In this document: positions 9,934-62,215 of the stretch, one piece after another
Position numbering within the stretch: the stretch's first letter is position 1
How the letters are laid out: each line of letters begins with the position of its first letter
NCBI GenBank assembly: GCA_038065475.1
Contig: JBBTQY010000008.1
Coordinates: 6,562-70,561 of the forward strand
Origin: Patescibacteria group bacterium
GTDB lineage: Bacteria > Patescibacteriota > Minisyncoccia > Ryanbacterales > GWA2-47-10b
Direction of reading: 5' to 3'
DNA length: 64,000 nucleotides
Translations under genes and position numbers: made by a program
The notes under the pieces: model-generated
The model's input: the letters and a program-made list of their open reading frames with translations, nothing else
The model's database searches: none
What the model was told of the DNA's origin: nothing

Positions 9934-10515
9934 TTAGGAGTAACACATGCGGCGTTGACCATATTCGACTACCTCTACCTCAACTCCTTTTTTGAGGCCA
10001 AACTTGCGGGCAGGCTTGAGCTCGGGCATCCAGATATCGACGCGCTGTTTGTAGCGCTCATTCATACAGTCTTCGACCACAAACTCCTGTTCGCCGAAAA
10101 GCTTGGGGAATCGGAGCTTGGTACCGAGCGGAAACTTGTTTGACGCGACAATACCCCATTGTACGCGTTTACCAGACGCCGTTTCAAAAGGCGTACTGTC
10201 AGTTTCCTCTGGACGTGAAGTGTAAGCGCTCACAGCAAGTTGATGCGTGCGCGCAGATGGACGCACCCCAATATCCAATCCCTCTTGAGGGATTGGTTCT
10301 TGGGGTTGGGTGTACGTAACTCTCCTCGGAGACGATGTGTGCCAGGAGATGTTCTCCATCTTCAAAACGGGATATTCAGCGAGCGGACGGAGCGGCTTAT
10401 GCGGCCGCAGTGCCATCGGCTGAATCTGATGGGGAATTTCTTCTAGCTGCGAGAGTTGACGCGCCTCTACGTCAGATACTCCAAAAACGAGTATCAAAAG
10501 CAGAATCGCAAACAC
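9934..10515 (-). CDS. 3D-domain (MltA-like double-psi beta-barrel) secreted protein
   Basis: C-terminal WGIVASNKFPLGTKLRFP...VVEDCMN 3D-domain signature. Start reassigned to the GTG preceded by AAGGAGG at 6 nt, giving a signal peptide VFAILLLILVFGVSDVEA; the track ATG at 10623 would overlap the upstream gene. Confidence 0.7.
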   Translation of the reverse strand: MFAILLLILVFGVSDVEARQLSQLEEIPHQIQPMALRPHKPLRPLAEYPVLKMENISWHTSSPRRVTYTQPQEPIPQEGLDIGVRPSARTHQLAVSAYTSRPEETDSTPFETASGKRVQWGIVASNKFPLGTKLRFPKLFGEQEFVVEDCMNERYKQRVDIWMPELKPARKFGLKKGVEVEVVEYGQRRMCYS

Positions 10516-10553
10516 GTAGTTCCTCCTTCTTGTTCCTCTTGAGTGTACTGATT

Positions 10554-10937
10554 CTAGTGTGAGTATAGCACGGTTTTCTCTTGTGTCAAGATACCGGGCT
10601 GCCACAAATCCTGCCGGAAGCACCTGACACCGGGGGTTTCGATATCTCGTACCTCCTCTATGGGCAAGTCATGCGCAAAAAAAAGCGGGGTCAGGCGCAA
10701 CGCTTCATCATCAAAACTCATCCCGTCAGGTAACGAAAAAGAAAGAAAGTATTGATCTCCCTGATCAGTAATATTGCGCGTAAAACAAAGCTTGATACCT
10801 GACAAAAATTCTGCGCGATGCCTTTCGTGCGGAGCGTCTGCGCACACATCAATCGGATATTCATCGGCCGCGCGACGTAAGCGCTCAGCGAGCGCCAATA
10901 CTTCTTCAGAATGTTCAAAAAGACTAGGGATCTTCAT
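10554..10937 (-). CDS. hypothetical protein
   Basis: Start taken at the internal ATG (MKIPSLFEHSEE) so that it does not overlap the upstream gene. Confidence 0.45.
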   Translation of the reverse strand: MKIPSLFEHSEEVLALAERLRRAADEYPIDVCADAPHERHRAEFLSGIKLCFTRNITDQGDQYFLSFSLPDGMSFDDEALRLTPLFFAHDLPIEEVRDIETPGVRCFRQDLWQPGILTQEKTVLYSH

Positions 10938-10996
10938 GAAGTCATTGTAATAAAAAACCAAAAAGAAAAAAGAGGGGTCACGTTGTAACCTCTCTT

Positions 10997-11350
10997 CTAG
11001 TGAATATCCTTCTCCGCTTCTGCCTTTTCGTAGCGCGCCATCCAATCCAGAAGTTTTGAAAAATTCTTCTCCTCCTCTGGCCTTGCAAGATCAGCGTGCA
11101 AGAGCTTCTGTAAAACGTCGTCGAGATCTGCCGCCTCAACTTCATCAAGCTTAAGTTTCTCCTTCCCGTTTGCCATAAGCTTCAAGATAAGCTCGTTTAC
11201 CTCAAGCGTTTCGCGAAACCGCATGCCTTGCTGATCCCGTGCCTCACCTGTCTGGTAGAGTCTTCGAATGCGGTCTTCAATATCAAGAACATCTCTGCGA
11301 TGTTGCTGCATCCTCGCATCCCCCTCGCCGTGAAATTCTGGGTGCTCCAT
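10997..11350 (-). CDS. hypothetical coiled-coil protein
   Basis: Charged, heptad-rich 117 aa ORF. Confidence 0.45.
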   Translation of the reverse strand: MEHPEFHGEGDARMQQHRRDVLDIEDRIRRLYQTGEARDQQGMRFRETLEVNELILKLMANGKEKLKLDEVEAADLDDVLQKLLHADLARPEEEKNFSKLLDWMARYEKAEAEKDIH

Positions 11351-11391
11351 AGAACTGATTTAATCTAATAGTATTCCTTACCTATAAAATA

Positions 11392-11970
11392 TCAACGACG
11401 CCTGTCGAGGGCCACACCAAGTCCAAGCCCCATGCCCGCCTGCCAACAGATATAGAGTGTAAAAATCTGCTTTTGATACCAAAGCTCTGAAGCTGGGTCG
11501 CCCAAAAACCATGCAAGACCGAGGATAGCACCAAAAAATATAAGAATGCCGAGCTCTTTTAACTCAAGACCGAACAGTAAAATGCTAAACGACGCAAGCA
11601 TGACAAACGCACCAGCTCCACCAGCAATCAAAAACTCACCGTACGAGGGAGCTGTGTTGGTACCTTCTATCAAAAGTTGAACGGTTTTAACGGCGAGAAA
11701 ATAGCCTGCAGTTGAGCCTGCGATCCACAACGGCAAACGAAAAAGTAGTGTCATCTCACGATCACGACGCATCAATATCCCAAGAGCGATAAAGACACCG
11801 AAGATAATACCTGCTGCATACCAGGATGCATCATTCCACTGATAATAATTTTGGAGCGCGTCTGTTGCGATCGCTGAAAGAAATCCTGAGAGTGTCCCTA
11901 GCAGGCCAAACATGAGAGTATTACCAACCTTCATATATAGATAGTGTAGAGCTGCCACTTGTAGGGACAA
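11392..11970 (-). CDS. hypothetical polytopic membrane protein
   Basis: About six TM helices. Confidence 0.5.
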   Translation of the reverse strand: MSLQVAALHYLYMKVGNTLMFGLLGTLSGFLSAIATDALQNYYQWNDASWYAAGIIFGVFIALGILMRRDREMTLLFRLPLWIAGSTAGYFLAVKTVQLLIEGTNTAPSYGEFLIAGGAGAFVMLASFSILLFGLELKELGILIFFGAILGLAWFLGDPASELWYQKQIFTLYICWQAGMGLGLGVALDRRR

Positions 11971-12141
11971 TGCACAAACAGAAAACCCCTCGCCTTTCGG
12001 CTAGGGGTTCGCTGCTCTCTGTGTTCTCGTGGTTTCAGGCCGATATGTCCGATTGGTTACGGAGCGACGGCCACAGAAGAGGTACCTTTTCAGTGTATCA
12101 AACCGCTACCCACACGTCAAGGGCCCTGGGGATACCGCCTA

Positions 12142-12447
12142 TTAATCCTTTTTATCGAGCCGGTCGAGACCTATCCATTTGACCCCAAAATATACCACGA
12201 AGGCAATGACCGTAAAATCAATGAGCGTACTTACAAAATTACCAAGCCCGAGCGACACGGGGCCAAGCGCGAGCTTGGCATCTTTGAGATTTCCCGCAGC
12301 CCCCAGCGCTACGCCAATGATGGGATTGACCAGATCATTGACCACGGAGCTAACTACTTTTGATACAGCACCACCCAAGATAAACCCGACAGCAAGTCCT
12401 ACTACCCCCTGCTTGCGAACAAAATCAAGAAACCCCTTAAAGTGCAT
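12142..12447 (-). CDS. mscL: large-conductance mechanosensitive channel
   Basis: MscL TM1 signature GVVGLAVGFILGGAVSKVVSSVVNDLVNPIIG and TM2 region; 101 aa. Confidence 0.85.
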   Translation of the reverse strand: MHFKGFLDFVRKQGVVGLAVGFILGGAVSKVVSSVVNDLVNPIIGVALGAAGNLKDAKLALGPVSLGLGNFVSTLIDFTVIAFVVYFGVKWIGLDRLDKKD

Positions 12448-12453
12448 GATCGG

Positions 12454-12690
12454 CTAGCGCTCGCCAAATGGAGAGATGTCTTTGAGAATCTGCTGCGGGG
12501 TTGGCGTATTTTCAAACCCCTGGTCGAGAAGAAGATTGTTGATATAGTAGAGAGCCAACATCCAAATAATCGTAGACGTGATAACACCTACCACGAAACC
12601 GCTCAGAGCTGAGGCAACCAATTGCCCGAGCTTAAATGCATATTTTTGCTTGTCATCAGAGACAAACGCCTTTCTCAAGGATGTGTACAT
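12454..12690 (-). CDS. small membrane protein
   Basis: Two TM helices; upstream of mscL on the same strand. Confidence 0.35.
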   Translation of the reverse strand: MYTSLRKAFVSDDKQKYAFKLGQLVASALSGFVVGVITSTIIWMLALYYINNLLLDQGFENTPTPQQILKDISPFGER

Positions 12691-12819
12691 AGAACGTATA
12701 AAAAATAAATAATAAAAAAGCTTTAAAAGCTACCTAAAGCTAGTATACCAAGAAATTTCATCGGTAAAGAGCCAAGATAGTGGATAGCGACAATAAATAA
12801 GTCGTTGTATTCTAACGAG

Positions 12820-13483
12820 TCATCTCTGTTTTAATTCTGTATAGCCAAGATATTTCAGTTTTGCCTCCGCTATCATGTTGGCAATAGCTTTCGCCTCTTT
12901 CGATCGCGAGTGCCCTGGATGATATTTTCTCATAAGTATACCGAGTTTTTTATCATCGCCGTCCTTTATTCCTCGAAAAAACTCTCTATCTACAAGACGC
13001 TGTATGTACCTCTTATATTTTTTGCGATTTGGGTTGTTATGAAATGAAGATAATTTTGTTGGTATACCAGCAAAAAAGACTTTATATCCGCTTCCAAATA
13101 CCCTTTTCATCGTCCACCTACATCTCGCTTCGTGCCCGCTTGTGGTAATAATAAGAACATTTTTCCATATGGGATTTTTTTCTAAAGATTTGTTTTGAGA
13201 AATAAAAATTCCCTATAGTATCTCTGGACTTACGCTCAACATAAACAAGCTTTTTAGAAACACCGTGTTTAATTAGATAGTTTTGCATAACATCGGCTTC
13301 TTTGTACTTTGGTATAAATTTCATCCACGTGCTATACCCTCCGCTAACTATGATGGGAGTTTCTGTATATTTCTTATAGAGTTTTACGAAAGCCTCTAGT
13401 CTTTCCTTGGTATATAAAACGGGTTTGAGCGTCCCATCCGTTCCACCGCCGAGAATGATAATAACGTCTGGTTTCATAACCAA
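12820..13483 (-). pseudogene. DUF218 (YdcF/SanA-like) gene split by a +1 frameshift in an A7 run
   Basis: The N-terminal ORF has VIIILGGGTDG...IIVSGG (DUF218). Reading the AAAAAAA run at about 13172-13178 as A6 fuses it to the ORF at 12820..13110 and restores NVLIITTSGHEAR, the conserved DUF218 LVTSxxHxxRA-like motif. Confidence 0.6.
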
Positions 13484-13577
13484 ACACTACCACAAAAGTT
13501 ATATTGGACTCTATTTAGGATCGCGAATGCGGTGGTATTATAACTTTTCTCAATGATATACTTATTCTATAAATAAT

Positions 13578-13931
13578 ATGATTGAAACAAAAAGAATACA
13601 TGGGGGCCTCACTGGCCTTATGATTGGCAGTATACTCGGAATCATAATTACAGTTATCGCCTTCAGCTGTTTTGTTTGTGGATTCCTTTTAAGTCTTTCG
13701 AGCTTCTTCTCTCCACAGACTCTCTTAACGCCATTCTTTAATGGGACTGCATACTATGACAGCTTTACGCGCTATATCCTTTCATCGTTTGCTCTCTACA
13801 GTATATTAGGATTTCTCTTTGGATTTATTATTGGCAAAAAATCTCCTCCAGACAAAACTCTTAAAAGAATCTTTTATGTTGCACTGGCTATAATAGTGCT
13901 TAGTAGCATCTTCGTACCCCCAGAGCTATAA
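13578..13931 (+). CDS. hypothetical membrane protein (cassette)
   Basis: Three TM helices; flanked by array repeats. Confidence 0.45.
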   Translation: MIETKRIHGGLTGLMIGSILGIIITVIAFSCFVCGFLLSLSSFFSPQTLLTPFFNGTAYYDSFTRYILSSFALYSILGFLFGFIIGKKSPPDKTLKRIFYVALAIIVLSSIFVPPEL

Positions 13932-14021
13932 GTACTGTCTTAAGGATTTACTTGAAGCTCTCTTTCCAAAAATAAAAAGAGATGCTAGCCTTTAGCTTGA
14001 AACAACAAACGGGAGGCGAAT

Positions 14022-14480
14022 ATGAACTCGCTCGTGAAAAAATATGTGGAAGCCGGCCGTCCCTTTCAGATGGGACTAATCTTGAGCTTTTTGTATAGAG
14101 GATTGCGGTTCGCAGAAGAAACCGCACCCCTATACGCTCAGCTCATGGACCTCACTGGGATGTGCATCGTCGCTCTCTACATGATCTTGATCTATGGTTC
14201 GCGGGGCAGACACAACCTCATCACTACGGGCCTCTTCAAGTACACGCGGCACCCAATGTATACGGGATTCGTACTCATCGAGTTTCGCTTCTGGTTCGCA
14301 CACCAATATCCGTGGGACTTCTGGGTATCGGCGGTGATCTTCTGGGGCTCGATCATCACGGCTGGCCTCATACAAGAAAAGGAAACTCTCGCAAAATTCG
14401 GGCCAGAGGCGGAAGAATACTACAAGAAAACTCCTCGGATTTTCCTCTTCTACCCACTCAAGAAGCTAGCGACACAATAA
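14022..14480 (+). CDS. isoprenylcysteine carboxyl methyltransferase (ICMT)/PEMT-family membrane methyltransferase (cassette)
   Basis: TGLFKYTRHPMYTG motif, the RHPxY signature of ICMT/phospholipid methyltransferases. Confidence 0.7.
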   Translation: MNSLVKKYVEAGRPFQMGLILSFLYRGLRFAEETAPLYAQLMDLTGMCIVALYMILIYGSRGRHNLITTGLFKYTRHPMYTGFVLIEFRFWFAHQYPWDFWVSAVIFWGSIITAGLIQEKETLAKFGPEAEEYYKKTPRIFLFYPLKKLATQ

Positions 14481-14624
14481 CCTCTGTCGCTTTTTTATTT
14501 GGGTCACAAGTACAGAGGTTATTATAAATTTACTCCAAGAAAAAGAATTTTTAGTGTACATCTCAAGGACCCTTTGTAGAATTGACCTTATCTATGCTAG
14601 TTTCTCTGCAGAAGGAGGTCTTCA

Positions 14625-14939
14625 GTGCCCATAAAATATGCTCCGAGAAAAAAGGATATTCTTCTCGTAAAAGCCTTCTTGGCCATACGAGCAGGACTCC
14701 ATTCAATGGACGAATCCACACGACAATCGATGTCAACGAATCCAGAAATGAAACCTGGATACGAAGCCATGCGAGAAGCTGAACGTGAAATGGAAAGATG
14801 GGTAAGAAGTATCGTCTGTCGCACAGCCGGAAAAATCTGTGGAAGTAAGGAGTGGATAGCAGCTGGTCCCTGCGAATGCACTAACTGCCAAATATACCTC
14901 GACATGCTTCCGCATGAACACCTCCATTTCTCTCAATAG
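14625..14939 (+). CDS. hypothetical Cys-rich protein (cassette)
   Basis: GTG start 6 nt after GAAGGAGG; CRTAGKICGSKEW..PCECTNC; terminator gccaatc/gattggc plus T-run follows. The antisense track ORF is rejected. Confidence 0.5.
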   Translation: MPIKYAPRKKDILLVKAFLAIRAGLHSMDESTRQSMSTNPEMKPGYEAMREAEREMERWVRSIVCRTAGKICGSKEWIAAGPCECTNCQIYLDMLPHEHLHFSQ

Positions 14940-14957
14940 AAGAAGGTCGTCAACTAC

Positions 14958-14985
14958 GCCAATCAGAATACGATTGGCTTTTTTA
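14958..14985 (+). terminator. rho-independent terminator
   Basis: gccaatcagaatacgattggc followed by ttttttatt. Confidence 0.6.
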
Positions 14986-15061
14986 TTTAAAAGGTCCGAT
15001 TAAGTTCTATTTGGGGTCGTCCGCCTCGGTGAGCTCGGCGAGACGGGCGAGTGCTGTGGCA

Positions 15062-15481
15062 TTATACCTTTGCTTTCGGGTCCTTCTTTGTAACAATAAC
15101 CCATTCAGTCTCTCCTGGTAATCTCCTTTGAAAGGCGGCTTTTGCTGGATTTATGCTCGGATAGTTAGCCCACGGATTCATCCAGCCCCTTGGAGTTTTC
15201 AATAGAAAATGTCCTTGAGAATATTTCTTTGAGCGCTTTATAAATACAATCGTGCCTGGCAAATATTTTTTTTGACTCCATCTTTTAGACGAGCATCCCT
15301 TAGTGATTATATTTACTTTAGAAAGAGCGCTTACAATATCTTTGTTATAGAAACCAACCGTATACTCTTTAAGCCTTCCATTGCTAAAGTGACTTCTCAT
15401 TTTCTTATAAGTCAAATCTGAGAGTGATGCTGCACACGCAATCGCACACCCCATCGGAGCTTCCTGGGCTACCAATTTCAT
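15062..15481 (-). CDS. putative papain-fold (C39-like) cysteine peptidase domain protein (cassette)
   Basis: N-terminal GCAIACAAS Cys motif and a later His (QGHFLL); weak assignment. Confidence 0.35.
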   Translation of the reverse strand: MKLVAQEAPMGCAIACAASLSDLTYKKMRSHFSNGRLKEYTVGFYNKDIVSALSKVNIITKGCSSKRWSQKKYLPGTIVFIKRSKKYSQGHFLLKTPRGWMNPWANYPSINPAKAAFQRRLPGETEWVIVTKKDPKAKV

Positions 15482-15726
15482 ATCATCATAGTAGTTTTTA
15501 TATTTTTATTATCAAGAAAGGTTCGATCCCCACTAGCCTGTCGAAAATCGAAAAGACGTTGCCAGATAGCAACTTTAGTTATATTAGATTTTCTTTTAGG
15601 GTCGCGAGTGCGGTGGTATTATGAATTTTCTACCAACATTAAAAACACTTCATTTTATAACACGCTTGCAAGAATGTATGACTTCCATTAATACTAAAGA
15701 TGGAATCTCTCGCGAGGAAGGAGTAA

Positions 15727-15873
15727 ATGACTGTGCCGAAGAAAAACCCGAAGTCTCGACTGCAATGGTCAGCTAAAGATGAAAAGAAATTCAAGCATAC
15801 ACTCAAGCGATTGAGTAGGGAGGTTGTTCGCGAAATTGTTACTCGTGCCAAGCAACGAAAAAAGAAAAAATAA
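15727..15873 (+). CDS. small basic protein, 48 aa (cassette)
   Basis: ATG after GGAAGGAG; MTVPKKNPKSRLQWSAKDEKKFKHTLKRLSREVVREIVTRAKQRKKKK; absent from the track because it is under 60 aa. Confidence 0.35.
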   Translation: MTVPKKNPKSRLQWSAKDEKKFKHTLKRLSREVVREIVTRAKQRKKKK

Positions 15874-15995
15874 CACGCCACCGTACGGTTCGCCCTGCGG
15901 TTCTTTTTTTTAGAAGATTATATTAAATTCTATTTGGGGTCGTCCGCCTCGGTGAGCTCGGCGAGACGGGCGAGTGCGGTGGTATTATACCCTTC

Positions 15996-16736
15996 TTAAA
16001 AGCTCCTATGCTTTTTTAAAGATTTTAACCAAGCCAAGGTTACCTTAAAAAGTTCTTCTTGCTTGCCTTCTTCAGCAAAATTATGGCCAGCTCCTTTGAT
16101 TACCGAGAGCGACTTCGGATTGTTTGCTGATTTATACATCTTCTTACCACCACCAATTAAAACTCCCTTGCCTGCAAGAATTATCTTTATAGGTGCTTGT
16201 ATTTTTTTGATAAGATCCAGAGAATCAACGGTTTTTGACTCTCGAATCAATTCCTCTCTTAACACCACTTCGAAACCTTCGTTTAATATCCTGCCATTTA
16301 TCGCTTTAATAAATTTACATCCGTAAAAGAACTTTACGATTACTGGCATATAAGAACCGTCCCAAAATATAACCCCGTCAAAATCTTTTTTTGCTGAGCT
16401 CAAAATGGATGGAGCTCCATAGCTGTGCCCGACTACAAAAATCTTTTTTGCTCCATTCTTTCTAAGATAATCGACAACAGTATCGATATCTTGCCCGTGA
16501 ATTTTGAGGGTGCATTCTCCCAAGTTGCGTGCGCCTTTTTGCCAATCATAAAGGTTGAAGCGAAATACAGAGAAACCATTCTTCTCAAAAAAACGAGCAG
16601 CATTGTAATGCATAGCTTCATCCATATGACCTGTCAGACCATGAACCAGAACAATCGTGGGCTTATTTAAAGAACCGCGGAGTTTTGCGTAAATAATCTT
16701 TTTATCTTTAGTTTTTAACCTAAGATTTTTTTCCAT
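15996..16736 (-). CDS. alpha/beta hydrolase (cassette)
   Basis: GHSYG nucleophile elbow (GxSxG), C-terminal His; alpha/beta fold length. Confidence 0.8.
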   Translation of the reverse strand: MEKNLRLKTKDKKIIYAKLRGSLNKPTIVLVHGLTGHMDEAMHYNAARFFEKNGFSVFRFNLYDWQKGARNLGECTLKIHGQDIDTVVDYLRKNGAKKIFVVGHSYGAPSILSSAKKDFDGVIFWDGSYMPVIVKFFYGCKFIKAINGRILNEGFEVVLREELIRESKTVDSLDLIKKIQAPIKIILAGKGVLIGGGKKMYKSANNPKSLSVIKGAGHNFAEEGKQEELFKVTLAWLKSLKKHRSF

Positions 16737-16888
16737 ATCACAACCGTAGCATAAAGGGTTCGATTCCCACTAGCCTATCGGAGATCGAAAAAGCGTTGCT
16801 AGATCGCAACTTCAGCTATATTAGTTTTTCTTTTGGGATCGCGAGTGCGGCGGTATTATAACTATTCTTGCTCAACTGAAAGCTTGTT

Positions 16889-17209
16889 TTAACTGAACGA
16901 CACCCCTCTTGTTTGTCCTTTCTCCAAAAAACGTTTTCGTTGGGATAAATAACTATCACCGCTCCCATAAAAAGCGAATTCTAAGACGACGTATCTAAAA
17001 GCGCGCCCAGGAGAATAAGTGAACGTTTTAGTTAGATCCTTATAAACCCATGTTCTTATCGGAATTTCTCCTATTAACCCAACTGCCAAAAATACTAAAG
17101 CTGGTAGCGAAAGAATGTCTCCGCGTTCTATGGCCCACCAGATTAAAGCAGTGGCTAATAGTATTATTCTAAAGTATATATATCCCCAGATGCCTCGCGT
17201 GGAAGTCAT
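16889..17209 (-). CDS. hypothetical membrane protein (cassette)
   Basis: Three TM helices. Confidence 0.45.
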   Translation of the reverse strand: MTSTRGIWGYIYFRIILLATALIWWAIERGDILSLPALVFLAVGLIGEIPIRTWVYKDLTKTFTYSPGRAFRYVVLEFAFYGSGDSYLSQRKRFLEKGQTRGVSFS

Positions 17210-17264
17210 ATTATCATCCTAAAATGGGTACAAAGTTTTTACTAGGGTCGCGAGTGCGGTGACA

Positions 17265-17672
17265 TTATAACATTGCTTTCCGAATCGCCTCTTTATAAAA
17301 TCTTGGCATATTGAGGTTTTCTACTTCTTCGAGTGAAAAAGGTTGGAACTCCGCCTTGCCCGCCTCTCCATCAATCTCAAACTCGCCAGTCTTTTTGAGA
17401 AGTTTGCAGAGGTATGAAACTACCAAAACACCAACAGATTCATCGGACGATTTTTGGATAGTATAAAGATACGTTTGGATGACATCTCCAACCTCCACCT
17501 CGAAACCGAGCTCTTCTTGCATCTCGCGTTTTACTGTATCAATTGGTTGTTCTCCTTCGTCGAGTTTGCCGCCTGGCAGCTCCCACTCGTTACGTTCGTT
17601 TTTACGAAGCCAAACCTTACCATCTTCGAAGACAATGCCCTTTACAGAAATGGGGACTTTGTATGTGCTCAT
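17265..17672 (-). CDS. NUDIX hydrolase (cassette)
   Basis: Nudix box GGKLDEGEQPIDTVKREMQEELG. Confidence 0.85.
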   Translation of the reverse strand: MSTYKVPISVKGIVFEDGKVWLRKNERNEWELPGGKLDEGEQPIDTVKREMQEELGFEVEVGDVIQTYLYTIQKSSDESVGVLVVSYLCKLLKKTGEFEIDGEAGKAEFQPFSLEEVENLNMPRFYKEAIRKAML

Positions 17673-17872
17673 GTGAGAATCCTAGCACGGAAGTTATATG
17701 AGATTCTATTTGTGGTGCCGTAGTAGAGGATGTTAGAACTGTGCTTGAGAGATTAAGTGAAGAGATTTATATACCGAATTTAATTGGAAAATGAAAACGC
17801 CACCTTTGATATAATCGCTGGTATTATAACCATCCTAAGCTACGCCCGTCTTTAAGATGATCCGTACGTCAT

Positions 17873-18514
17873 TCAATATAATTTTGAGTTGTCTCTTTTA
17901 TTTTGCTCTCGCCCTAAAGCTTCGTTTAATCGAGCAAGATATATTTTTGCCTGTTCGCGTTTTACGGGGTCAGCAACCGCATCAATCGCAAGAAAAAGTT
18001 TCTCACTATCAAATAAAACTTCAAACACTTCGTCTCGAGATTCAGACTCCTTGTACTGCCGCCAGGGCTCTACATTATCAAGATAAACTACATCTTCCTT
18101 TTCATTAAATGCAAAATTCATCCCCCCTTTATCAAATCTAATACCTGTATCATTCATCTTGTTTATAAACTCAATAACGCGAGGATCTCTTGCGCGTGCG
18201 TCTGCTTGTTCTTGTGCAAATGATATATCATCATCTGTTACATCAGATTTATTAACTAACATTTGCATTGCTTTATGCTCTTCGTCACGAGCTTTTTTTT
18301 CCTCAATAATACGATTGGGTTCTGAAGTAGATTGATGTAAATACGGAATATTGTCAGGAAATAGAATATATAAAATCTTTGCTAGATATCCTCTAGCTAT
18401 TACTTTATCCTTCTCAGCTTCCCGAAAGTATTCCTTTATAACACGGTCTGGGTGATACGGGTGTCCGTGAACAGTTTTATCGAACCCCTCCCCTAAAAAT
18501 TCTCCCTTTTCCAT
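17873..18514 (-). CDS. hypothetical protein with a kinase-like Gly-rich loop (cassette)
   Basis: FLGEGFDKTVHG resembles a P-loop-like kinase glycine loop; otherwise unassigned. Confidence 0.4.
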   Translation of the reverse strand: MEKGEFLGEGFDKTVHGHPYHPDRVIKEYFREAEKDKVIARGYLAKILYILFPDNIPYLHQSTSEPNRIIEEKKARDEEHKAMQMLVNKSDVTDDDISFAQEQADARARDPRVIEFINKMNDTGIRFDKGGMNFAFNEKEDVVYLDNVEPWRQYKESESRDEVFEVLFDSEKLFLAIDAVADPVKREQAKIYLARLNEALGREQNKRDNSKLY

Positions 18515-18619
18515 CTAAAAATTTTACCATAAAAAGTTCGATTAAGTTCTATTTAGGGTCGCTTGCTGGACGAGTTCAGAACTTTGGATTGGGCAAAAAT
18601 TGAGACAAAGCTCAAGTTA

Positions 18620-19201
18620 CTAAATCTTAGCTTTTAGATATGTATCCAGGTCTTTTTGCGAGTAAACGCCGATACCGCGTGTTGCCATAGGCTCATAATC
18701 TGAACCGCTAAAGAGCGTAGTATGAGAAAATGGTTTCTCAAAACTAATACCAGTAAGTCTCGCTAATCTTTCATAATATCCCCCAAGTTCATCAAGTCGT
18801 ACTTCCTGTATAAGCGTATACCTTGTATGTTCTGGAATGTCTATGTAACCAGATTTTTTTAATTCTTCGGCATTGTAAAATTTTTCTAAAAAATAATATG
18901 CATCGAGCAATTCATATTTCCATTGCGTTTGAATAAAATCGTCTCTAATTTGCTCCTTTATTCTTTTCGCCTCTTCCACATGAGAAAGAAAATCAGCTAT
19001 CGCCCTGCCGTTACGACTTGCGATAACGCTTATATGAAATTCTGGTTTTTCCTGGAGACCGCGAGTTGACGCTTCTTGCAAGATTCTTTCGGGAATTTCG
19101 GGCCGTGAAATTGCCAATAAGGCATTACAATTTTCTTCAAGAAAATTTGCCTTTTCAGGAATAAGTATATTCCTCTCTTTGCCATTTTCGGTTCTTTCCA
19201 T
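18620..19201 (-). CDS. 2H phosphoesterase superfamily protein (LigT/CPDase-like) (cassette)
   Basis: Two H-x-[ST]-x motifs: FHISVIA and SHTTLFS. Confidence 0.6.
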   Translation of the reverse strand: MERTENGKERNILIPEKANFLEENCNALLAISRPEIPERILQEASTRGLQEKPEFHISVIASRNGRAIADFLSHVEEAKRIKEQIRDDFIQTQWKYELLDAYYFLEKFYNAEELKKSGYIDIPEHTRYTLIQEVRLDELGGYYERLARLTGISFEKPFSHTTLFSGSDYEPMATRGIGVYSQKDLDTYLKAKI

Positions 19202-19355
19202 ACCAAAATGCTACCAGATTAGAACTGAGAAGTCTTTGCCCTGATTAAATATTTTTTGATTTATTGAATTAAATTCTCGTTTGAGTCGCGAGTGCGGTGG
19301 TATTATAAGCTTTTTAGGGATGGAAAATCTGCCTCATTTTTATTAAACTCCAAAT

Positions 19356-19796
19356 ATGCAAATAATATTCATCCGATACGGAGAATGGGAAAACGCCCAT
19401 ATAAATGAGCGGGGCAAGAAAACTATGCTTTCGGTCGCTCATAAATTAGAAAAATTTATACATAAACCTAATGCCAGTATCATAGTCGCGGATATTCCCC
19501 GTGCCATAGAAAGCGCGGCTATTCTATCTAAAGAATTACAACTACCTGAAGCAAAGCGAACATCAGAGCTGTTTGCTGAAGAAGAAAGTGGGAATCTGCC
19601 AAATATAGAAAAGGCCGCCTCGGTTGTACTTTCGGCGAGCGAACACAAAAACATCCTCATTGTTATCGCATCAAGAGAGTATCTGGAGCTACTCCCAAAT
19701 TATATTCTCGAGAAAAGAAATTCGGAAAAAGCTTCTGTTCAGCGCGGAGAAATACTTATTGTAGATATTGAAACTAATACTTTAAAAACGCTCTAG
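19356..19796 (+). CDS. hypothetical protein (histidine-phosphatase-like fold?) (cassette, opposite orientation)
   Basis: IFIRYGEWEN resembles the RHG motif region of the phosphoglycerate mutase family, but His is replaced by Tyr. Confidence 0.4.
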   Translation: MQIIFIRYGEWENAHINERGKKTMLSVAHKLEKFIHKPNASIIVADIPRAIESAAILSKELQLPEAKRTSELFAEEESGNLPNIEKAASVVLSASEHKNILIVIASREYLELLPNYILEKRNSEKASVQRGEILIVDIETNTLKTL

Positions 19797-19833
19797 ATAC
19801 TTGGGTCGCGAGTGCGATGGTATTATAACCCTC

Positions 19834-20268
19834 TTAGCTCAAATCGACCCAGAATGCCGTGTAATCGTTCCCTTTATGTAAGCCGAGATTCGTGTACCTC
19901 TCCTCTAAAGTCTTGTCATTAACTGGCGAATATACCAGAACTTGCGTATGACCCATTTCTTTTAGAGTATTCTCCGCCATCTTAAATAACTTCTTAGAAA
20001 TCTCGTCCTCATATTCTTTTTGTACAGCAAATCTAAGAAGCCATGCGGAACGACCATCCTCAAAAAGAGTAACGGTACCAACAATATCACCCTCTAATTC
20101 AGCAACTAATATTTTACTAGGATTTGTTGATGATAGCCTCCTTAATCTCTTTTCGCTGTCTCTTGCACCATCATACTGCCCGCCATATGTACTAGAGTTT
20201 TTATATAAAGCAAGCACCCCAGAATAGTCAGTGTCAGAATTATAATTCCTAATAGAAATTTCGTTCAT
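19834..20268 (-). CDS. GNAT family N-acetyltransferase (cassette)
   Basis: Acetyl-CoA binding motif region VGTVTLFEDG...RFAVQKEYEDEISKKL. Confidence 0.8.
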   Translation of the reverse strand: MNEISIRNYNSDTDYSGVLALYKNSSTYGGQYDGARDSEKRLRRLSSTNPSKILVAELEGDIVGTVTLFEDGRSAWLLRFAVQKEYEDEISKKLFKMAENTLKEMGHTQVLVYSPVNDKTLEERYTNLGLHKGNDYTAFWVDLS

Positions 20269-20379
20269 TATGCTTTTTATCGTATCAGAAAATTATATTT
20301 AGACCTATTTGGGTCACGAGTGCGGCGGTATTATAACTATTCTTGCTACCTCCTCACTAATATCCTAAGAGAAAATGTA

Positions 20380-20838
20380 TTAGAGTTGTGATTTTACTTT
20401 TGCTGAATAAATATTCTTCTCATCCTGAGATGGCCAATACGTATCATCGTGGCTCAAATATAAGCAATCCCCTTTATATCTAGGGTAGATATGAAGATGA
20501 TAATGCCAAACATCCTGATTACCAGCTGGCTCGTTATGCTGACGAGTAGAAACTCCATCGCACCCATAAGCTTTCTTTAAAGCAATGACAATTCTTTTTG
20601 ATGCATCCATTATCGCGTGGCCATACTCTTCTTCCATATCGTAAATGTTTTCAATGTGTTTATTTGGTATAACTATGACATGACCTCTGTTTGATCTCCA
20701 CCATTTACCAGCGATAAAACAAGTTACAAGATCATTACGATAAACAACATCCGCCTCGCAACTTCCCTTGGTAGTAGCCTCTCCTCTGGAGACCTGGCAC
20801 ATTGGGCACACATATCCTTTCGGCTCATGATTATACAT
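20380..20838 (-). CDS. HIT-family hydrolase (cassette adjacent to tRNA-His)
   Basis: Histidine triad HYHLHIYPR; N-terminal Cys cluster CPMCQ. Confidence 0.8.
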   Translation of the reverse strand: MYNHEPKGYVCPMCQVSRGEATTKGSCEADVVYRNDLVTCFIAGKWWRSNRGHVIVIPNKHIENIYDMEEEYGHAIMDASKRIVIALKKAYGCDGVSTRQHNEPAGNQDVWHYHLHIYPRYKGDCLYLSHDDTYWPSQDEKNIYSAKVKSQL

Positions 20839-20879
20839 ACCAAAAGCCTATCATAAAAGTTATATTCGACTCTATTTTG

Positions 20880-20952
20880 GGTGGCTAGAGGGAATCGAAC
20901 CCTCATCTCCGCTTCCACAGAGCGGCGCTCTAACCGCTGAGCTATAGCCACC
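20880..20952 (-). tRNA. tRNA-His(GTG) with encoded G-1, no encoded CCA
   Basis: G-1:C73, acceptor GTGGCTA/TAGCCAC, U8A9, D-arm GCTCAGCGGTTAGAGC, anticodon loop CTGTGGA, T-arm GAGGGTTCGATTCCCTC. Confidence 0.85.
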
Positions 20953-21106
20953 ATGATACTGACAACTCTAGCATACCAAAGTTGTCTTTTTCAAAATACA
21001 CGCGCCGCACAGAGCCGGCGCTCGTCGCGCCCCACGCGCGACCCGGGGCTTCACCCGTCGAAAGCTATATAAACGCTTTCGACCCACTGAGCTATAGCCA
21101 CCATGA
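20953..21106. repeat. hairpin-rich 133 bp insert bounded by a 20 nt direct duplication of the tRNA-His 5' end
   Basis: ctgagctatagccaccatga occurs at 20933-20955 (the real tRNA 5' end) and again at 21084-21106. Between them are five consecutive perfect hairpins, e.g. GTCGAAAGC..GCTTTCGAC and GTCGCGC..GCGCGAC. Confidence 0.5.
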
Positions 21107-21113
21107 TTACTTG

Positions 21114-21201: not shown

Positions 21202-21897
21202 TTACAGTGCAACACCGATTATATCTAAAGCTTTCTCAATTTTCAACCGCTTTCTCTTGAGACATACAACTTTCGTAGTGGGGTACAATTTTCTTAAAAG
21301 TATTATGGAATCTTTTTTTGCGTATTTTAGTTGATGTGTCCCCTTGCCACCCCTATTCATATGGCCTTTTATTTTGAGTCTCATCTCAACTTCGTACCGA
21401 ATCCAATCAAGATGTGCTTTGCTCGCAGATATAAAAATTGTATAAAACATGAAACTTGAGCGCCAACGCGGATCATAGTACGAATAAAACGATCCATCGC
21501 CGTCAAAACAACCACGCAGGAAGTCAAAGAAAAATCTTGGCGGAATATCAAGCGAGGAAAGAATATGCGATTTTGCAGGCATGAGACCGATACCTAGTAA
21601 AAATTTATAAAAAAGTACATCTCCAAACTGAATTCTTGTATAAATTTTTTTTAAACCATACCCGGAGCGCTTTCTGCCAATTTTATTTTTGAGTCCCAGA
21701 CACTTCAAAAATGTCCGTAACTGTTCGATGTCCTTTGAAGTAAGATCGATATGACGTCCATCATTTGATAAACATCCATCAGTCACTAACAACCCGATAG
21801 CATAGGCAAACTCAGGCGACCATCGTATCGCCACCTTCCCTTCTGGTTTTCTACCAACCATAACAATATCATACCTCAAGCTTGTAGCGTATGCCAA
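21202..21897 (-). CDS. LAGLIDADG homing endonuclease, free-standing (start more likely ATG at 21861 than TTG at 21897)
   Basis: Two LAGLIDADG motifs, AYAIGLLVTDGCLS and DFLRGCFDGDGSF. Stop is 4 nt from the tRNA-Leu 5' end; no host intron or intein detected. Confidence 0.8.
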   Translation of the reverse strand: MAYATSLRYDIVMVGRKPEGKVAIRWSPEFAYAIGLLVTDGCLSNDGRHIDLTSKDIEQLRTFLKCLGLKNKIGRKRSGYGLKKIYTRIQFGDVLFYKFLLGIGLMPAKSHILSSLDIPPRFFFDFLRGCFDGDGSFYSYYDPRWRSSFMFYTIFISASKAHLDWIRYEVEMRLKIKGHMNRGGKGTHQLKYAKKDSIILLRKLYPTTKVVCLKRKRLKIEKALDIIGVAL

Positions 21898-59267: not shown

Positions 59268-59547
59268 ACGCAACATTTTCTACACCTCCCTGTGGCACGC
59301 TTTCTCGAAGTTTTTCGAGAATATGATTTTGACGCTGATGGATGTAATGCTTAAGAATTGCAGACGCTGTATAGATTAAAACAGTCCCATCTCGATATTC
59401 AACCTGGTACTGTCCCTCATATCCCACCAGTATAGTCTGGAGAGCTCCCATAACGGTCTCGCTTGATCGCTTTCGTGCAAGCTCGTGGGATTTATCAATC
59501 CGTGCAAACGCGTCCGGGAGAAGGACGAATATGCGGTTAAAACTCAT
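59248..59547 (-). CDS. DUF721-like protein
   Basis: 99 aa ORF immediately downstream of dnaN, the typical position of DUF721 (DciA-like) genes. Confidence 0.5.
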   Translation of the reverse strand: MSFNRIFVLLPDAFARIDKSHELARKRSSETVMGALQTILVGYEGQYQVEYRDGTVLIYTASAILKHYIHQRQNHILEKLRESVPQGGVENVAFKGPRQ

Positions 59548-60659
59548 ACATTACCCTTCATGGGCATAACAATATACATCGATCCTTCGCGTCCTGTGGG
59601 CTTAATAAGTAATGGCTGTGATTCGGAGTTAAAACCAAAAAATAATTTCTCTTCTGCATATGACTCCACACCTTGAAGAAGATATTGAAAATTAAAAACG
59701 ATAGAGACATCTTCTCCATCGAACTCACCCTTCGTAACACCTTTATAGGTACCTTGATTGTTTTTACTCTCAATAGTTATAGATTTATCTTTTACATTAA
59801 GAGAAAAGGATACGCTATTGAGTTTATTGGCAAAAATACTTGCACGGCGTAGTTGACTCACTATCTCTTGTCTCGTAGCTACCCCATGAGTTTTAAAGTT
59901 TTTGGGTATAATCTGTTGATAATCTGGGAAATTCCCCTCAGTAAGTCGTGAATAAAGTGTAATATCTCCAAATTGAAAGGTTCCCTCACCCTTACTGATA
60001 AGAAACTCTACCGTATCTTCACTACTCTGATCGGCAAGTCGAATTATCTCTTCAAATGTGCGAGCCGGGAGTAGAAAGGTTTCTTTTGGATTTTTTATTG
60101 ATACTGAGGCAAGTTTTAAGCGTTCTTCACTGAGGCGAAAACTATCAGTTGATGCGATAAGGAAGGTTTCTTTCTCTAAAATCCCCAATACACTAGCGAG
60201 CTCTGGTTTGATGGCACTTTTTGATACTGATATTAAAACTCTGGGGAAAAACTGTGTAATATCTTTCTTGTATATTTTAGCTTTATAAAGCTCCTTTACT
60301 ACCGGAAATGGAGGGAAGTCTTCTTGAGGATATCCTTTTATGGTTGTTTCCTGCCCTTGAACCGTAAGACTTATGTCGGCGCCATCGCTCTCAAGAGTTA
60401 TTTTTTCATCTTTAGAAAGAGTTGATATATAAGAAAGAAGTTGTTTTGCAGGTATTACTACACCACCCTGCTCATTTACTGTGCACCTTACTAAGGTTTG
60501 AATACCAATCTCAAGATTAGTACCCATAACTCTCAATGATCCACCTTCGGTAGTTATAGAAAAAGATCCAAGTATCGGGAGAGTAATATCTTTACTTGTG
60601 GCGCGCTCAACAATGCTTAATGCTTTTTTAAAATTGTCAGCGATAATTATACACTTCAT
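59544..60659 (-). CDS. dnaN: DNA polymerase III beta sliding clamp
   Basis: Three-domain clamp length (371 aa), MKCIIIADNFKKAL.. start, downstream of dnaA. Confidence 0.9.
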   Translation of the reverse strand: MKCIIIADNFKKALSIVERATSKDITLPILGSFSITTEGGSLRVMGTNLEIGIQTLVRCTVNEQGGVVIPAKQLLSYISTLSKDEKITLESDGADISLTVQGQETTIKGYPQEDFPPFPVVKELYKAKIYKKDITQFFPRVLISVSKSAIKPELASVLGILEKETFLIASTDSFRLSEERLKLASVSIKNPKETFLLPARTFEEIIRLADQSSEDTVEFLISKGEGTFQFGDITLYSRLTEGNFPDYQQIIPKNFKTHGVATRQEIVSQLRRASIFANKLNSVSFSLNVKDKSITIESKNNQGTYKGVTKGEFDGEDVSIVFNFQYLLQGVESYAEEKLFFGFNSESQPLLIKPTGREGSMYIVMPMKGNV

Positions 60660-60844
60660 ACCAGGTTCGATAATAGATTAGTTAATATATTTTTATCTTT
60701 TAGTAGTAGTTATTGTGTGCGGGATAACGTGTATAAATTATTTTTTCTTTACAGAATAAGGAGAATGATATTTTTACTACGTGCCAAATGTTTTTATAGG
60801 TTGTGGATAGTAGTTGGATAGAATTTATTTATAAAAATATTTTT
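60660..60844. promoter_or_regulatory. putative oriC: AT-rich dnaA-dnaN intergenic region with DnaA boxes
   Basis: tgtggatag (=CTATCCACA) at about 60802 and gttggatag at about 60814; ttatcc within gggataacg; AT-rich tracts. Confidence 0.5.
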
Positions 60845-62215
60845 TTAGCTTTCATACATTTTTCCCCTGATTTGTTTTATTTCTTCCACAAGTTTTGAGT
60901 CTTTTTTTAACTCACCAGAAATTTTTTCATATGCATGAAGTGCTGTCGTATGATCTCGTCCACCAAGCTTCTGACCGATAAATGGATATGATCCATGAAA
61001 GTCTTCACGGAGAAGATACATGGCAATTTGCCTGGGTCTTACTACTTCGCGTCTACGGGATCGTTCAAAAAGCCCACCCTCTCCAAGGTCATAATATTGT
61101 GCTACAGCGTTGATTATCTGAGAAGGTGTCGCAACACGTTTTGCAGTCCTTGTGAGCTGCTCAAGCGCTATTTTTGCTTCCTCGAGGGTTAAAGGACGTT
61201 CCTTGAGTTTAGATTTTGCGAGGATGATATTAAGGGCGCCTTCAAGTTCGCGAATATTTTTTTGAATAGTAAATGCGATATACTCAAGTACTTCATCTGC
61301 TACCACAGGCTCTTTAGCTCCCTGCTTGAGCTTTAAGATAGCAAGGCGCGCCTCATACTCAGGTTCACTAATATCAGACGTAAGTCCAGCTTCAAAACGC
61401 GAGCGCAAGCGCTCTTCAAGATTTTGAATAGCCTGAGGAGGCTTGTCTGATGAGAAGATGATTTGTTTACCGCGTTCGTAAAGTGAATTAAAGGTATGAA
61501 AGAATTCTTCTTCACTTTTTGCCTTCCCTGCAATAAATTGAACGTCATCAATAATGAGAAGATCGACGTTTCGATACTTTTCTTTGAAGTTATGGAGTGG
61601 TTCGCGGTTTTGGATAATAGAAATAAGCTCGTTTACAAACCGTTCCGAGGTAAGATAGAGCACTTTAAAATCCGGATGGTCTTTTTTAACCTGATTGCCT
61701 ATCGCATGGAGAAGATGTGTTTTCCCGAGACCCACTCCCCCATAGACAAAGAATGGGTTATAGAGTGTACCGAGGTTTTTAGTTATAGAAAGGCCTGCTG
61801 CGTGGGCAAACTCATTAAAAGTACCAATAACAAATGATTCAAAAGTGTATCGTGGGTTGAGATTTGTGTCTCTATCAACAGAAAATTCTTTAAATTCAAG
61901 CTGTTCATCGAGCATCTCTACAGGTTCAGGGCGTTTTTTTGTCTGGGGTTGAAGGGGTGTATCGGCAGATGAGACGACGTAGCTTGCATTTCTAATCTCC
62001 GGCATTGTGGACCTCAGAGATTTGATGATATTTTTATGAAACTTCTTTTCTAACCATTCTTTTGCGAACGCATTAGGGACTGCGATAGTCGCGATACCGT
62101 CTTCAATGCCATGAATCGAGGTATGCTTGAACCAAGTGGCAAAATTAGCACGGGAAACTTCAAACTCGATCTGTCCGAGTACTGATTGCCACAATTCTTC
62201 TTGATTCATATACAT
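60845..62215 (-). CDS. dnaA: chromosomal replication initiator protein DnaA
   Basis: AAA+ Walker A GGVGLGKTHLLHAIG, Walker B LLIIDDVQF, C-terminal DNA-binding domain (HTTALHAYEKI). Confidence 0.95.
   Translation of the reverse strand: MYMNQEELWQSVLGQIEFEVSRANFATWFKHTSIHGIEDGIATIAVPNAFAKEWLEKKFHKNIIKSLRSTMPEIRNASYVVSSADTPLQPQTKKRPEPVEMLDEQLEFKEFSVDRDTNLNPRYTFESFVIGTFNEFAHAAGLSITKNLGTLYNPFFVYGGVGLGKTHLLHAIGNQVKKDHPDFKVLYLTSERFVNELISIIQNREPLHNFKEKYRNVDLLIIDDVQFIAGKAKSEEEFFHTFNSLYERGKQIIFSSDKPPQAIQNLEERLRSRFEAGLTSDISEPEYEARLAILKLKQGAKEPVVADEVLEYIAFTIQKNIRELEGALNIILAKSKLKERPLTLEEAKIALEQLTRTAKRVATPSQIINAVAQYYDLGEGGLFERSRRREVVRPRQIAMYLLREDFHGSYPFIGQKLGGRDHTTALHAYEKISGELKKDSKLVEEIKQIRGKMYES

Follow-up and report, generated by a model that had tools for sequence, protein, structure and literature searches.

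The stretch analysed here, 64 kb of DNA from a Patescibacteria group bacterium (the window), carries beside its tRNA-His gene a series of small genes separated by copies of one composite repeat. Thirteen copies, all in the same orientation, tile 13.49–20.89 kb, and none occurs elsewhere in the window. The intervals between the repeats contain one small open reading frame (ORF) each, with the sole exception of 13552–14492, which holds two (a 117-aa membrane protein and an ICMT-family methyltransferase), and the resulting cassette units measure 0.4–1.2 kb. Nine of the cassette ORFs lie on the minus strand and five on the plus strand, between co-oriented repeats. An original prediction, made from the sequence alone, had described about 13 repeat copies of 35–110 bp beside tRNA-His with one gene per interval. 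Copy number and size agree with what we found (13 profile sites within 13493–20885, from ~37 nt in r11 to ~122 nt in r4 and r6; Table 1), and the third statement holds for all intervals but the one just named. Patescibacteria have very small genomes, and their acquisition of accessory genes is little understood.

The variable stretch at this locus spans ~8 kb of low-GC sequence and is bounded by tRNA-His and by the conserved 78-aa and MscL genes. Island genes have a GC content of 37–44% (27–44% at third codon positions, GC3) versus 48–50% for the flanking core genes, with the ICMT gene as a compositional outlier (Table 1). Together, the low GC of the island genes and this outlier point to foreign and heterogeneous origins. 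In the wider neighbourhood, dnaN and dnaA (59544–62215) lie where GC is low and the cumulative GC skew changes direction, probably at the replication origin, which would place the island ~40 kb away from it. The array was also recovered, 100% identical and collinear with the window, in five contigs (535, 177, 7.3, 1.0 and 0.9 kb) from at least four independent assemblies; the two longest contigs (Hain_H41) stem from different assemblies of Hainich groundwater metagenomes. This identity across independent assemblies argues that the array is no assembly artefact, a doubt that the original prediction had raised itself and that can now largely be set aside.

Composition and variants of the repeat

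On the plus strand, the composite repeat consists of module A (AAGTTATATTnnAnTCTATTT) followed by core B (GGGTCGCGAGTGCGGTGGTATTATAAC). The 27-nt core B occurs in seven copies at up to three mismatches (0.00 expected), the 13-nt end of core B in 10 copies within the array plus a two-mismatch match at 12804 (0.95 expected), and module A in five copies (0.01 expected). An nhmmer profile made from seven repeat copies was run on the 64-kb window and on 10 related loci. It returned 13 sites at E<=0.11, all on the plus strand and all inside 13493–20885. A weak 14th match (plus strand, 12900–12937, E 0.2) lies within the p96 ORF, and no credible site was identified elsewhere in the window or in the 10 related loci. 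Were orientation free, 13 co-oriented copies out of 13 would be expected with a chance of 2^-12.

The A+B unit carries 10-nt terminal inverted repeats (AAAAGTTATA...TATAACTTTT). These are ~38 nt apart and are the only inverted repeats in the unit, the core itself not being palindromic. Fold z-scores of A+B units range from -0.63 to +0.53, the consensus fold is a trivial 5-bp stem (-3.5 kcal/mol) without covariation, and an Rfam scan of the island returned the true tRNA only, with no family matching the repeat.

Several copies depart from the basic plan. In variant D4, represented by two 96-nt copies (at 14976 and 15899), core B is interrupted by a 28-nt GC hairpin. Variant D3 comprises two 122-nt copies (at 15510 and 16747), ahead of which stand the 3' portion of a tRNA other than tRNA-His on the plus strand, its trailer and a terminator hairpin. 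The copy r9 differs in its right arm, B2 (GGGTCGCTTGCTGGACGAGTTCAGAACTTTGGATTGGGC; 18556–18605), and in r8 module A is followed by another tRNA-end-like sequence (17714–17741). The non-His tRNA fragments of D3 (plus strand, 15520–15538 and 16757–16775) comprise the T-arm and the acceptor strand TAGCCTA and are inverted relative to tRNA-His; with their adjoining trailer and terminator hairpin they stand 22–40 nt upstream of a minus-strand cassette gene.

The left and right arms of the repeat assort independently. A-type and B-type variants combine in several ways, and r6 is a mosaic, its left 30 nt agreeing with r4 at 25/30 positions (13/30 with r12) and its right 30 nt with r12 at 23/30 (19/30 with r4). 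A D4-type repeat on one side and a D3-type repeat on the other enclose the gene for p139 and likewise the unrelated alpha/beta hydrolase gene, so that one "chassis" bears different cargo. Three copies (r3, r5 and r11) are located between convergent stop codons with no adjacent gene start, yet they are well conserved, r11 being one base off the consensus.

Table 1. Coordinates of the repeats, cassette genes and adjoining features in the window (r1 to r13, repeat copies)
Feature	Position	Strand	Remarks
tRNA-His(GTG)	20879..20951	-	ARAGORN; Rfam tRNA 72.9 bits; CCA not encoded
r13	20855..20880	+	module A abutting the tRNA 3' end (true trailer); on the minus strand followed by a fixed 41-nt leader and the HIT start codon
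HIT family gene, 152 aa	20380..20838	-	Pfam HIT 3e-13
r12	20288..20344	+	A plus core B; right arm GGCGGTATTATAACTATTCTTGCT identical to that of r6
GNAT acetyltransferase, 144 aa	19834..20268	-	Pfam
r11	19782..19836	+	core B alone (1 mismatch); fills the 37-nt gap between convergent stop codons
146-aa gene	19356..19796	+	His_Phos_1 E 1e-3, 19.3 bits vs 21.7 family cut-off
r10	19263..19316	+	degenerate A plus core B
p193, 193 aa	18620..19201	-	two HxS/T motifs, no family match
r9	18531..18605	+	A plus variant arm B2 (GGGTCGCTTGCTGGACGAGTTCAGAACTTTGGATTGGGC)
p213, 213 aa	17873..18514	-	unnamed family, weak minimal-kinase-like similarity
r8	17688..17838	+	A, tRNA-3'-end-like ...GGCACCA (minus strand), ~100-nt spacer, B end CTGGTATTATAAC
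NUDIX hydrolase, 135 aa	17265..17672	-	Pfam; stop codon within the B box of r7
r7	17221..17278	+	degenerate A plus core B
membrane protein, 106 aa	16889..17209	-	
r6 (D3b)	16747..16869	+	non-His tRNA 3' fragment (16757-16775), trailer, terminator hairpin, A', core B
alpha/beta hydrolase, 246 aa	15996..16736	-	Pfam
r5 (D4b)	15899..15997	+	A plus core B split by 28-nt GC hairpin; between convergent genes
48-aa Lys/Arg-rich peptide ORF	15727..15873	+	with Shine-Dalgarno; gene caller favoured overlapping ORF 15621-15776
r4 (D3a)	15510..15632	+	built as r6, 83% identical to r6
p139, 139 aa	15062..15481	-	no family match; D4/D3 chassis as for the hydrolase gene
r3 (D4a)	14976..15074	+	88% identical to r5; between convergent genes
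Cys-rich protein, 104 aa	14625..14939	+	
r2	14493..14534	+	degenerate core B without A; profile E 0.006
117-aa membrane protein (GC 38%) and ICMT-family methyltransferase (GC 50%, GC3 65%)	13578..14480	+	Pfam (ICMT)
r1	13493..13551	+	best A+B copy, between divergent genes; A half plus leader 80% identical to r13
DUF218 (119 aa) and 96-aa ORF	12788..13483	-	distal end of the variable region; both 37% GC, absent from relatives
possible last B remnant GTTGTATTCTAAC	12804-12816		

Junctions at the tRNA-His 3' end and the locus in related species

Read on the tRNA strand, almost all of the 13 junctions have the form ...GC(G/C)ACCC–(T)AAATAGA (in pattern form ...GCGACCCAAATAGA), and tRNA-His itself continues into its trailer as ...GCCACCC–AAAATAGAGTCGAATATAAC, where the dash marks the junction. 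Because this motif is common to the array and tRNA-His, module A is a true copy of the tRNA-His 3' trailer. Furthermore, the two copies that bracket the array, r1 and r13, are 80% identical over 50 nt, and this identity reaches the start codons of the DUF218 and HIT genes. Motif and identity bear out the predicted anchoring of the repeats at the 3' boundary of tRNA-His, and we propose the tRNA 3' end with its trailer as the anchor of the array and as an attB-like target. Core B shows a weak resemblance to the tRNA-His acceptor end, which rests mainly on ...GC(G/C)ACCC; in register it matches 10 of 14 positions (shuffle p=0.007), the best value among the nine tRNAs of the window. The original description of the repeat core as a degenerate tRNA-His 3' end plus flank is thus upheld for the trailer part, module A, and only weakly for the acceptor part.

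One more feature beside tRNA-His was recorded, on the minus strand of the window (20952–21112) and also in L043 (11097–11206). A 19-nt copy of the tRNA-His 5' end (21079–21107) precedes ~125 nt with hairpins and a terminator, after which comes the intact tRNA-His. This insert contains GGGT[hairpin]CGAG(C/T)GCCG; it is similar to core B and its hairpin variant but lies on the strand opposite to the array copies.

In five related species, the regions on either side of the island are syntenic and the cargo between them is mutually unrelated. We regard the relatives as sister species because their flanking DNA is only ~77–79% identical to the window, their L19 proteins being 96–98% identical. tRNA-His is intact and 100% identical in these relatives; similarity stops at its last base and resumes at ~12733–12787. 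The original prediction had looked to related genomes for differences at this locus, and these indeed have different cargo from the last tRNA base onwards, some of them with direct repeats of the tRNA end. The 2.4-kb cargo of L037 comprises a 115-aa gene, a DUF3800 gene and a 176-aa gene, and over 60 nt its distal junction (...GCCCAATCCAAAGTTCTGAACTCGTCCAATAGGCGACCC joined to AATAAAAAG, also written ...GGCGACCC joined to AATAAAAAG) and the B2 arm of r9 share 85% identity, with different neighbouring genes. In L039–41 the cargo is a 165-aa gene and a 122-nt insert, the latter bracketed by direct repeats of the tRNA end (19 nt, perfect). A 210-aa gene is present in L043–45, together with a possible distal junction (CATAACCC joined to AAAATGATAG), and a 184-aa gene in L099.

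Two loci are more distant. L093 has housekeeping genes between tRNA-Leu and tRNA-His and is uninformative. L096 carries a second small array (10439–12600), located at tRNA-Leu. There, an 81-aa gene lies between degenerate copies of the tRNA-Leu end and trailer (at 12016 and 12530), which share 94% identity, and two more small genes lie between the tRNA-Leu-end copies and the tRNA. From this comparison, the tRNA-Leu/tRNA-His locus emerges as a hotspot of recombination in a genus-level clade.

Non-coding mini-inserts of 120–140 nt were observed in L039 (11267–11406) and L096 (10560–10649 and 12095–12185). At its end each repeats the local tRNA 3' end in direct orientation, and this copy pairs with an inverted one upstream; the GC hairpin between the two copies differs in sequence but keeps its structure. 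The inserts of L039 and L096 have an exact 21-nt block in common (CTAAGCGAAGCGCAGAAGGAG), with flanks only ~68% identical to the window. An Rfam scan of the L039 mini-insert and the L096 array identified true tRNAs only, and searches of IMG/VR with the 21-nt block and with the tRNA-His 3' end returned 0 matches each. A free-standing LAGLIDADG-type ORF (21202–21897, minus strand; GC 39%) separates the L19 gene from tRNA-Leu. L037 and L039 have this ORF too; L043 and L099 lack it and have instead a 153–157-aa gene between tRNA-Leu and tRNA-His. As the presence or absence of the LAGLIDADG ORF is independent of the cargo, a role of this gene in the array was dropped.

The arms of the repeat also have promoter-like features. 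They end in two outward-facing TATAAC-TTTT boxes. Five minus-strand genes start 40–42 nt after the junction and 20–23 nt after a TATAAC/TATAAT box, without a Shine-Dalgarno sequence. On the plus strand, core B ends in TGGTATTAT, an extended -10-like box found 33–100 nt before four genes, and the GC-rich "spacer" of the repeat is conserved as well as the -10-like boxes. From their sequence, the arms may supply inward-facing promoter-like boxes at both ends of each unit. The earlier view that mixed gene orientation excludes a promoter was too strong, since with two outward-facing boxes a repeat could drive both of its neighbouring genes. A generic promoter and terminator scan was not enriched over shuffles (for sigma-70, 21 sites versus 22.4 expected). 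A tRNA-like 3' processing signal on the minus strand was dropped for want of structure.

Origin of the array

On balance we favour, as a probable explanation, an accretion array that arose at the end of tRNA-His through recombination by an enzyme supplied in trans. We hypothesise that small units, each with one accessory gene (one with two), were added successively, unit by unit rather than as a block, where the tRNA-His 3' end meets its trailer (...GCCACCC–AAATAGA). The junctions would then be hybrid recombination sites, with an element-borne arm mimicking only the last 7–10 nt of the tRNA on the B side (GTTATAATACCACCGCACTCGCGACCC on the tRNA strand) and a copy of the tRNA trailer on the A side. 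Every event would add one site in direct orientation, so that the 13 copies would point one way regardless of the orientation of the cargo; function alone would not predict this co-orientation, the two ends of the unit being symmetric. Whichever way it faces, a gene would meet an inward-reading promoter-like arm, and the arms would have been reshuffled by later exchange between copies. The enzyme would most likely be a tyrosine or serine recombinase, provided from elsewhere in the genome or by a visiting element.

The closest documented system is the set of tandem islands at the ssrA locus of Dehalococcoides. Many islands lie there in tandem downstream of the tmRNA gene, whose 3' end recurs as a 20-bp repeat bounding each of them. 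Beside this repeat stands an additional conserved motif with no match in ssrA, and some units without integration genes are read as cis-mobilizable elements formed by accretion (PMC3146451). Like such t(m)RNA tandem islands, our array has units stacked downstream of the target gene and bounded by direct repeats of its 3' end, a further conserved motif that adjoins the repeat and has no match in the target gene, low GC, a synteny break, differences between relatives and units without integration genes. Insertion is at the tRNA 3' end with the gene left intact, and direct target repeats bound the units at 13 junctions, the tRNA-internal match being short and weak. The foreign composition described above is accompanied by presence/absence differences, with five cargo states among the related species. 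Unlike those islands, which measure 10–30 kb, the units here are 0.4–1.2 kb and mostly contain one gene; none of the 13 has an integrase; the repeat copies are mainly trailer (~25–45 nt) with only 7–10 nt of tRNA; the arms are promoter-like; and the host belongs to the Patescibacteria (candidate phyla radiation, CPR). Most likely, the array is a miniature variant of the known recombination-built tRNA-gene islands. The accretion model for arrays of integrative and conjugative elements, integrative and mobilizable elements and cis-mobilizable elements (ICE/IME/CIME) is a related known concept. A literature search on integrons or tRNA islands in CPR found nothing specific.

Integrons, to which the original prediction had likened the array, provide an analogy only. 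CALIN are clusters of attC sites without an integrase and need no IntI. As in CALIN and sedentary integrons, the cassettes are small, mostly single-gene, promoter-poor and accessory in content (GNAT, NUDIX, hydrolases), contain no recombinase and are separated by array-specific, highly similar, co-oriented sites. In attC sites, imperfect inverted repeats (R''-L''...L'-R', RYYYAAC...GTTRRRY) form a conserved hairpin. The array repeats lack both this hairpin and the R''/L''-L'/R' layout, and we rejected their identity as attC on the basis of the fold z-scores, the 5-bp consensus stem and the box order GTTATA...TATAAC, which is the reverse of that in attC. IntI, attI and Pc are all missing from the window, with no IntI or Phage_integrase domain among the window ORFs scanned or annotated. 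The cassette ORFs face both ways instead of being mostly co-oriented, and unlike integrons the array is anchored on a tRNA end.

Acinetobacter pdif modules are described as one or a few accessory genes between short recombination sites, thought to be moved by a host recombinase in trans (PMC6449649, PMC13141974). The array resembles them only in its logic of small accessory-gene units between short sites. A pdif site is a 28-bp XerC/XerD site with two 11-bp arms and a 6-bp spacer, and the sites often alternate in orientation. The array repeats, unlike these, are ~50 nt long, all direct and not palindromic, and the array lies ~40 kb from dnaA, not on a plasmid or at the terminus. A dif/Xer site was dropped because the core is not palindromic and the copies are all direct.

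Several points weigh against accretion by recombination at the tRNA end. The mosaic arms are also attainable by homologous exchange or gene conversion between repeats, and one interval (13552–14492) contains two genes. Without the terminal ACCC, core B matches the acceptor end at only 6 of 10 positions (p=0.07), so that much of its advantage over shuffled controls, which the original prediction had named as a test, lies in these four bases. The two plus-strand non-His tRNA fragments indicate that some units are no simple tRNA-His insertions. The cassettes, as the original prediction had noted for the units, and all other window ORFs tested yielded no integrase, resolvase or transposase domain, and no recombinase was found in the annotated ~20-kb neighbourhoods of L037, L039, L043, L093 and L096. 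Searches with core B yielded 34 single matches in GTDB representative genomes (about our chance estimate), 37 single matches in JGI metagenomes, none of them in a repeat context, and two single matches in IMG/VR. Apart from these single matches, about as many as chance would produce, core B is absent from the three collections, and there is therefore no external cassette pool and no second array for comparison. Gain or loss of units was not seen, all assemblies of this population being identical, and neither an excision product nor a circle was observed.

A more far-reaching version of trans-acting recombination, which we put forward tentatively and consider doubtful, is a Patescibacteria cassette platform equivalent to integrons in function and mechanistically unrelated to them. 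The landing site would be the tRNA 3' end and trailer (His here, Leu in L096) and the cassette site a ~50-nt unstructured A/B site with two inward promoters, and a recombinase from elsewhere would integrate, excise and rearrange single genes of 0.4–1.2 kb.

It is unlikely that the repeat is instead a divergent promoter/operator module of a small regulon, copied within an island acquired as a block and homogenised by gene conversion, with units that were never individually mobile. The paired outward-facing boxes, the fixed 40–42 nt between the junction and five minus-strand genes, the TGGTATTAT end of core B ahead of four plus-strand genes and the recombinase not being found would all fit such a module, as would a motif private to this genome, which a lineage-specific regulatory site would be. 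Yet a divergent promoter works either way round, and all 13 copies are co-oriented. Neither does regulation explain why r3, r5 and r11 lie between convergent stops with no gene start next to them, or why the GC-rich "spacer" is conserved as much as the -10-like boxes. The repeat is moreover continuous with the tRNA end and trailer, exactly where synteny breaks, and the sigma-70 scan was not enriched.

We also consider improbable a purely RecA-dependent route, in which homologous recombination, for example after natural transformation, used the 50–120-nt repeats as homology anchors without any dedicated recombinase. This would leave unexplained how unrelated DNA came to enter exactly at the final base of the tRNA in five species whose trailers differ, why L039 has a perfect 19-nt direct repeat and where the first repeats originated. 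Most copies share only ~27–50 nt at ~80–90% identity, which is marginal for RecA. This route would account for the absence of an integrase and for the exchange point of r6, which lies within the shared core and not at the tRNA boundary; repeats of 96 and 122 nt at 83–88% identity do exist, and the window encodes RuvA, RuvB and a type IV pilus/type II secretion system (T2SS) ATPase.

That the repeats are small non-autonomous elements resembling miniature inverted-repeat transposable elements (MITE) or repetitive extragenic palindromes (REP), inserted in the gaps of a pre-existing island, is very unlikely. The 10-nt terminal inverted repeats of the A+B unit and the variants with internal hairpin insertions would be in keeping with such an origin. 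A dispersed repeat of this type is contradicted by the confinement of the copies to the island (none beyond it in the 64 kb or in the relatives), by their co-orientation and by the lack of target-site duplications. Many copies, furthermore, lack one half, the left and right halves assort independently, and one "copy" is simply the tRNA trailer. An assembly artefact from collapsed or chimeric repeats, at which the short contigs L002, L091 and L092 do break, has next to no probability given that the 535-kb and 177-kb contigs and three short ones are 100% identical and collinear across the array.

If accretion at tRNA-His is correct, a tRNA-anchored stack of single genes, each with a standard leader or promoter, would be a compact route to sample foreign genes, and the cassette idea would extend past integrons and Xer modules. 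The conservative reading as a miniature tRNA-gene island, too, would mean that accretion at tRNA ends can operate on single genes with no integrase in residence. Were the units mobile, the recombinase could be searched for and tested directly, given the defined ~50-nt site and the tRNA-His target.

Proteins encoded by the cassettes

Pfam searches confirmed the HIT, GNAT, NUDIX, alpha/beta hydrolase and ICMT assignments that had been made for the cassette proteins from sequence alone, and identified DUF218 just beyond the array. The other early labels fared less well. The putative histidine phosphatase remains below threshold, "kinase-like" has weak profile support, "2H phosphoesterase" has two HxS/T motifs as its sole basis with no family match, and "C39-like peptidase" is without profile support.

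The p213 protein has no relative above 39% identity and belongs to an unnamed family of ~280 clusters with members of 200–230 aa. The profile of this family matches weakly the minimal kinase-fold effectors NleH1/2 and HopBF1 (E 0.02–0.05), and 7 of 50 members match Pfam YrbL-PhoP_reg. No match to p213 was found in viral contigs. Single-sequence AlphaFold models of p213 and p193 were unusable (predicted local distance difference test, pLDDT, 38 and 35), PDB sequence searches returned nothing significant, and PHROGs and PADLOC gave generic family matches only.

Apart from near-identical copies of this genome, each cassette protein is alone in its 90% cluster. Exact-protein look-ups of the alpha/beta hydrolase and HIT recovered only collinear copies of the array. 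HIT homologues at 60–72% identity occur in ordinary, differing chromosomal contexts in other Patescibacteria, the gene neighbours of an 82% homologue (P0122) differ from those in the array, and an 81% homologue (L084) lies in another context without repeats. The latter contig (Logan SRR30474943, 3679 nt) encodes the HIT homologue together with NAPRTase, LDcluster4 and HD genes. It starts and ends in an identical 21 nt (GCACTAGTGAAAGCTAGTGCT) and may be circular or repeat-bounded. At the distal end of the variable region, the 119-aa DUF218 protein matches only positions 1–94 of the 133-position profile; together with the adjacent 96-aa ORF it may represent one frameshifted gene of ~215 aa (12820–13477, minus strand).

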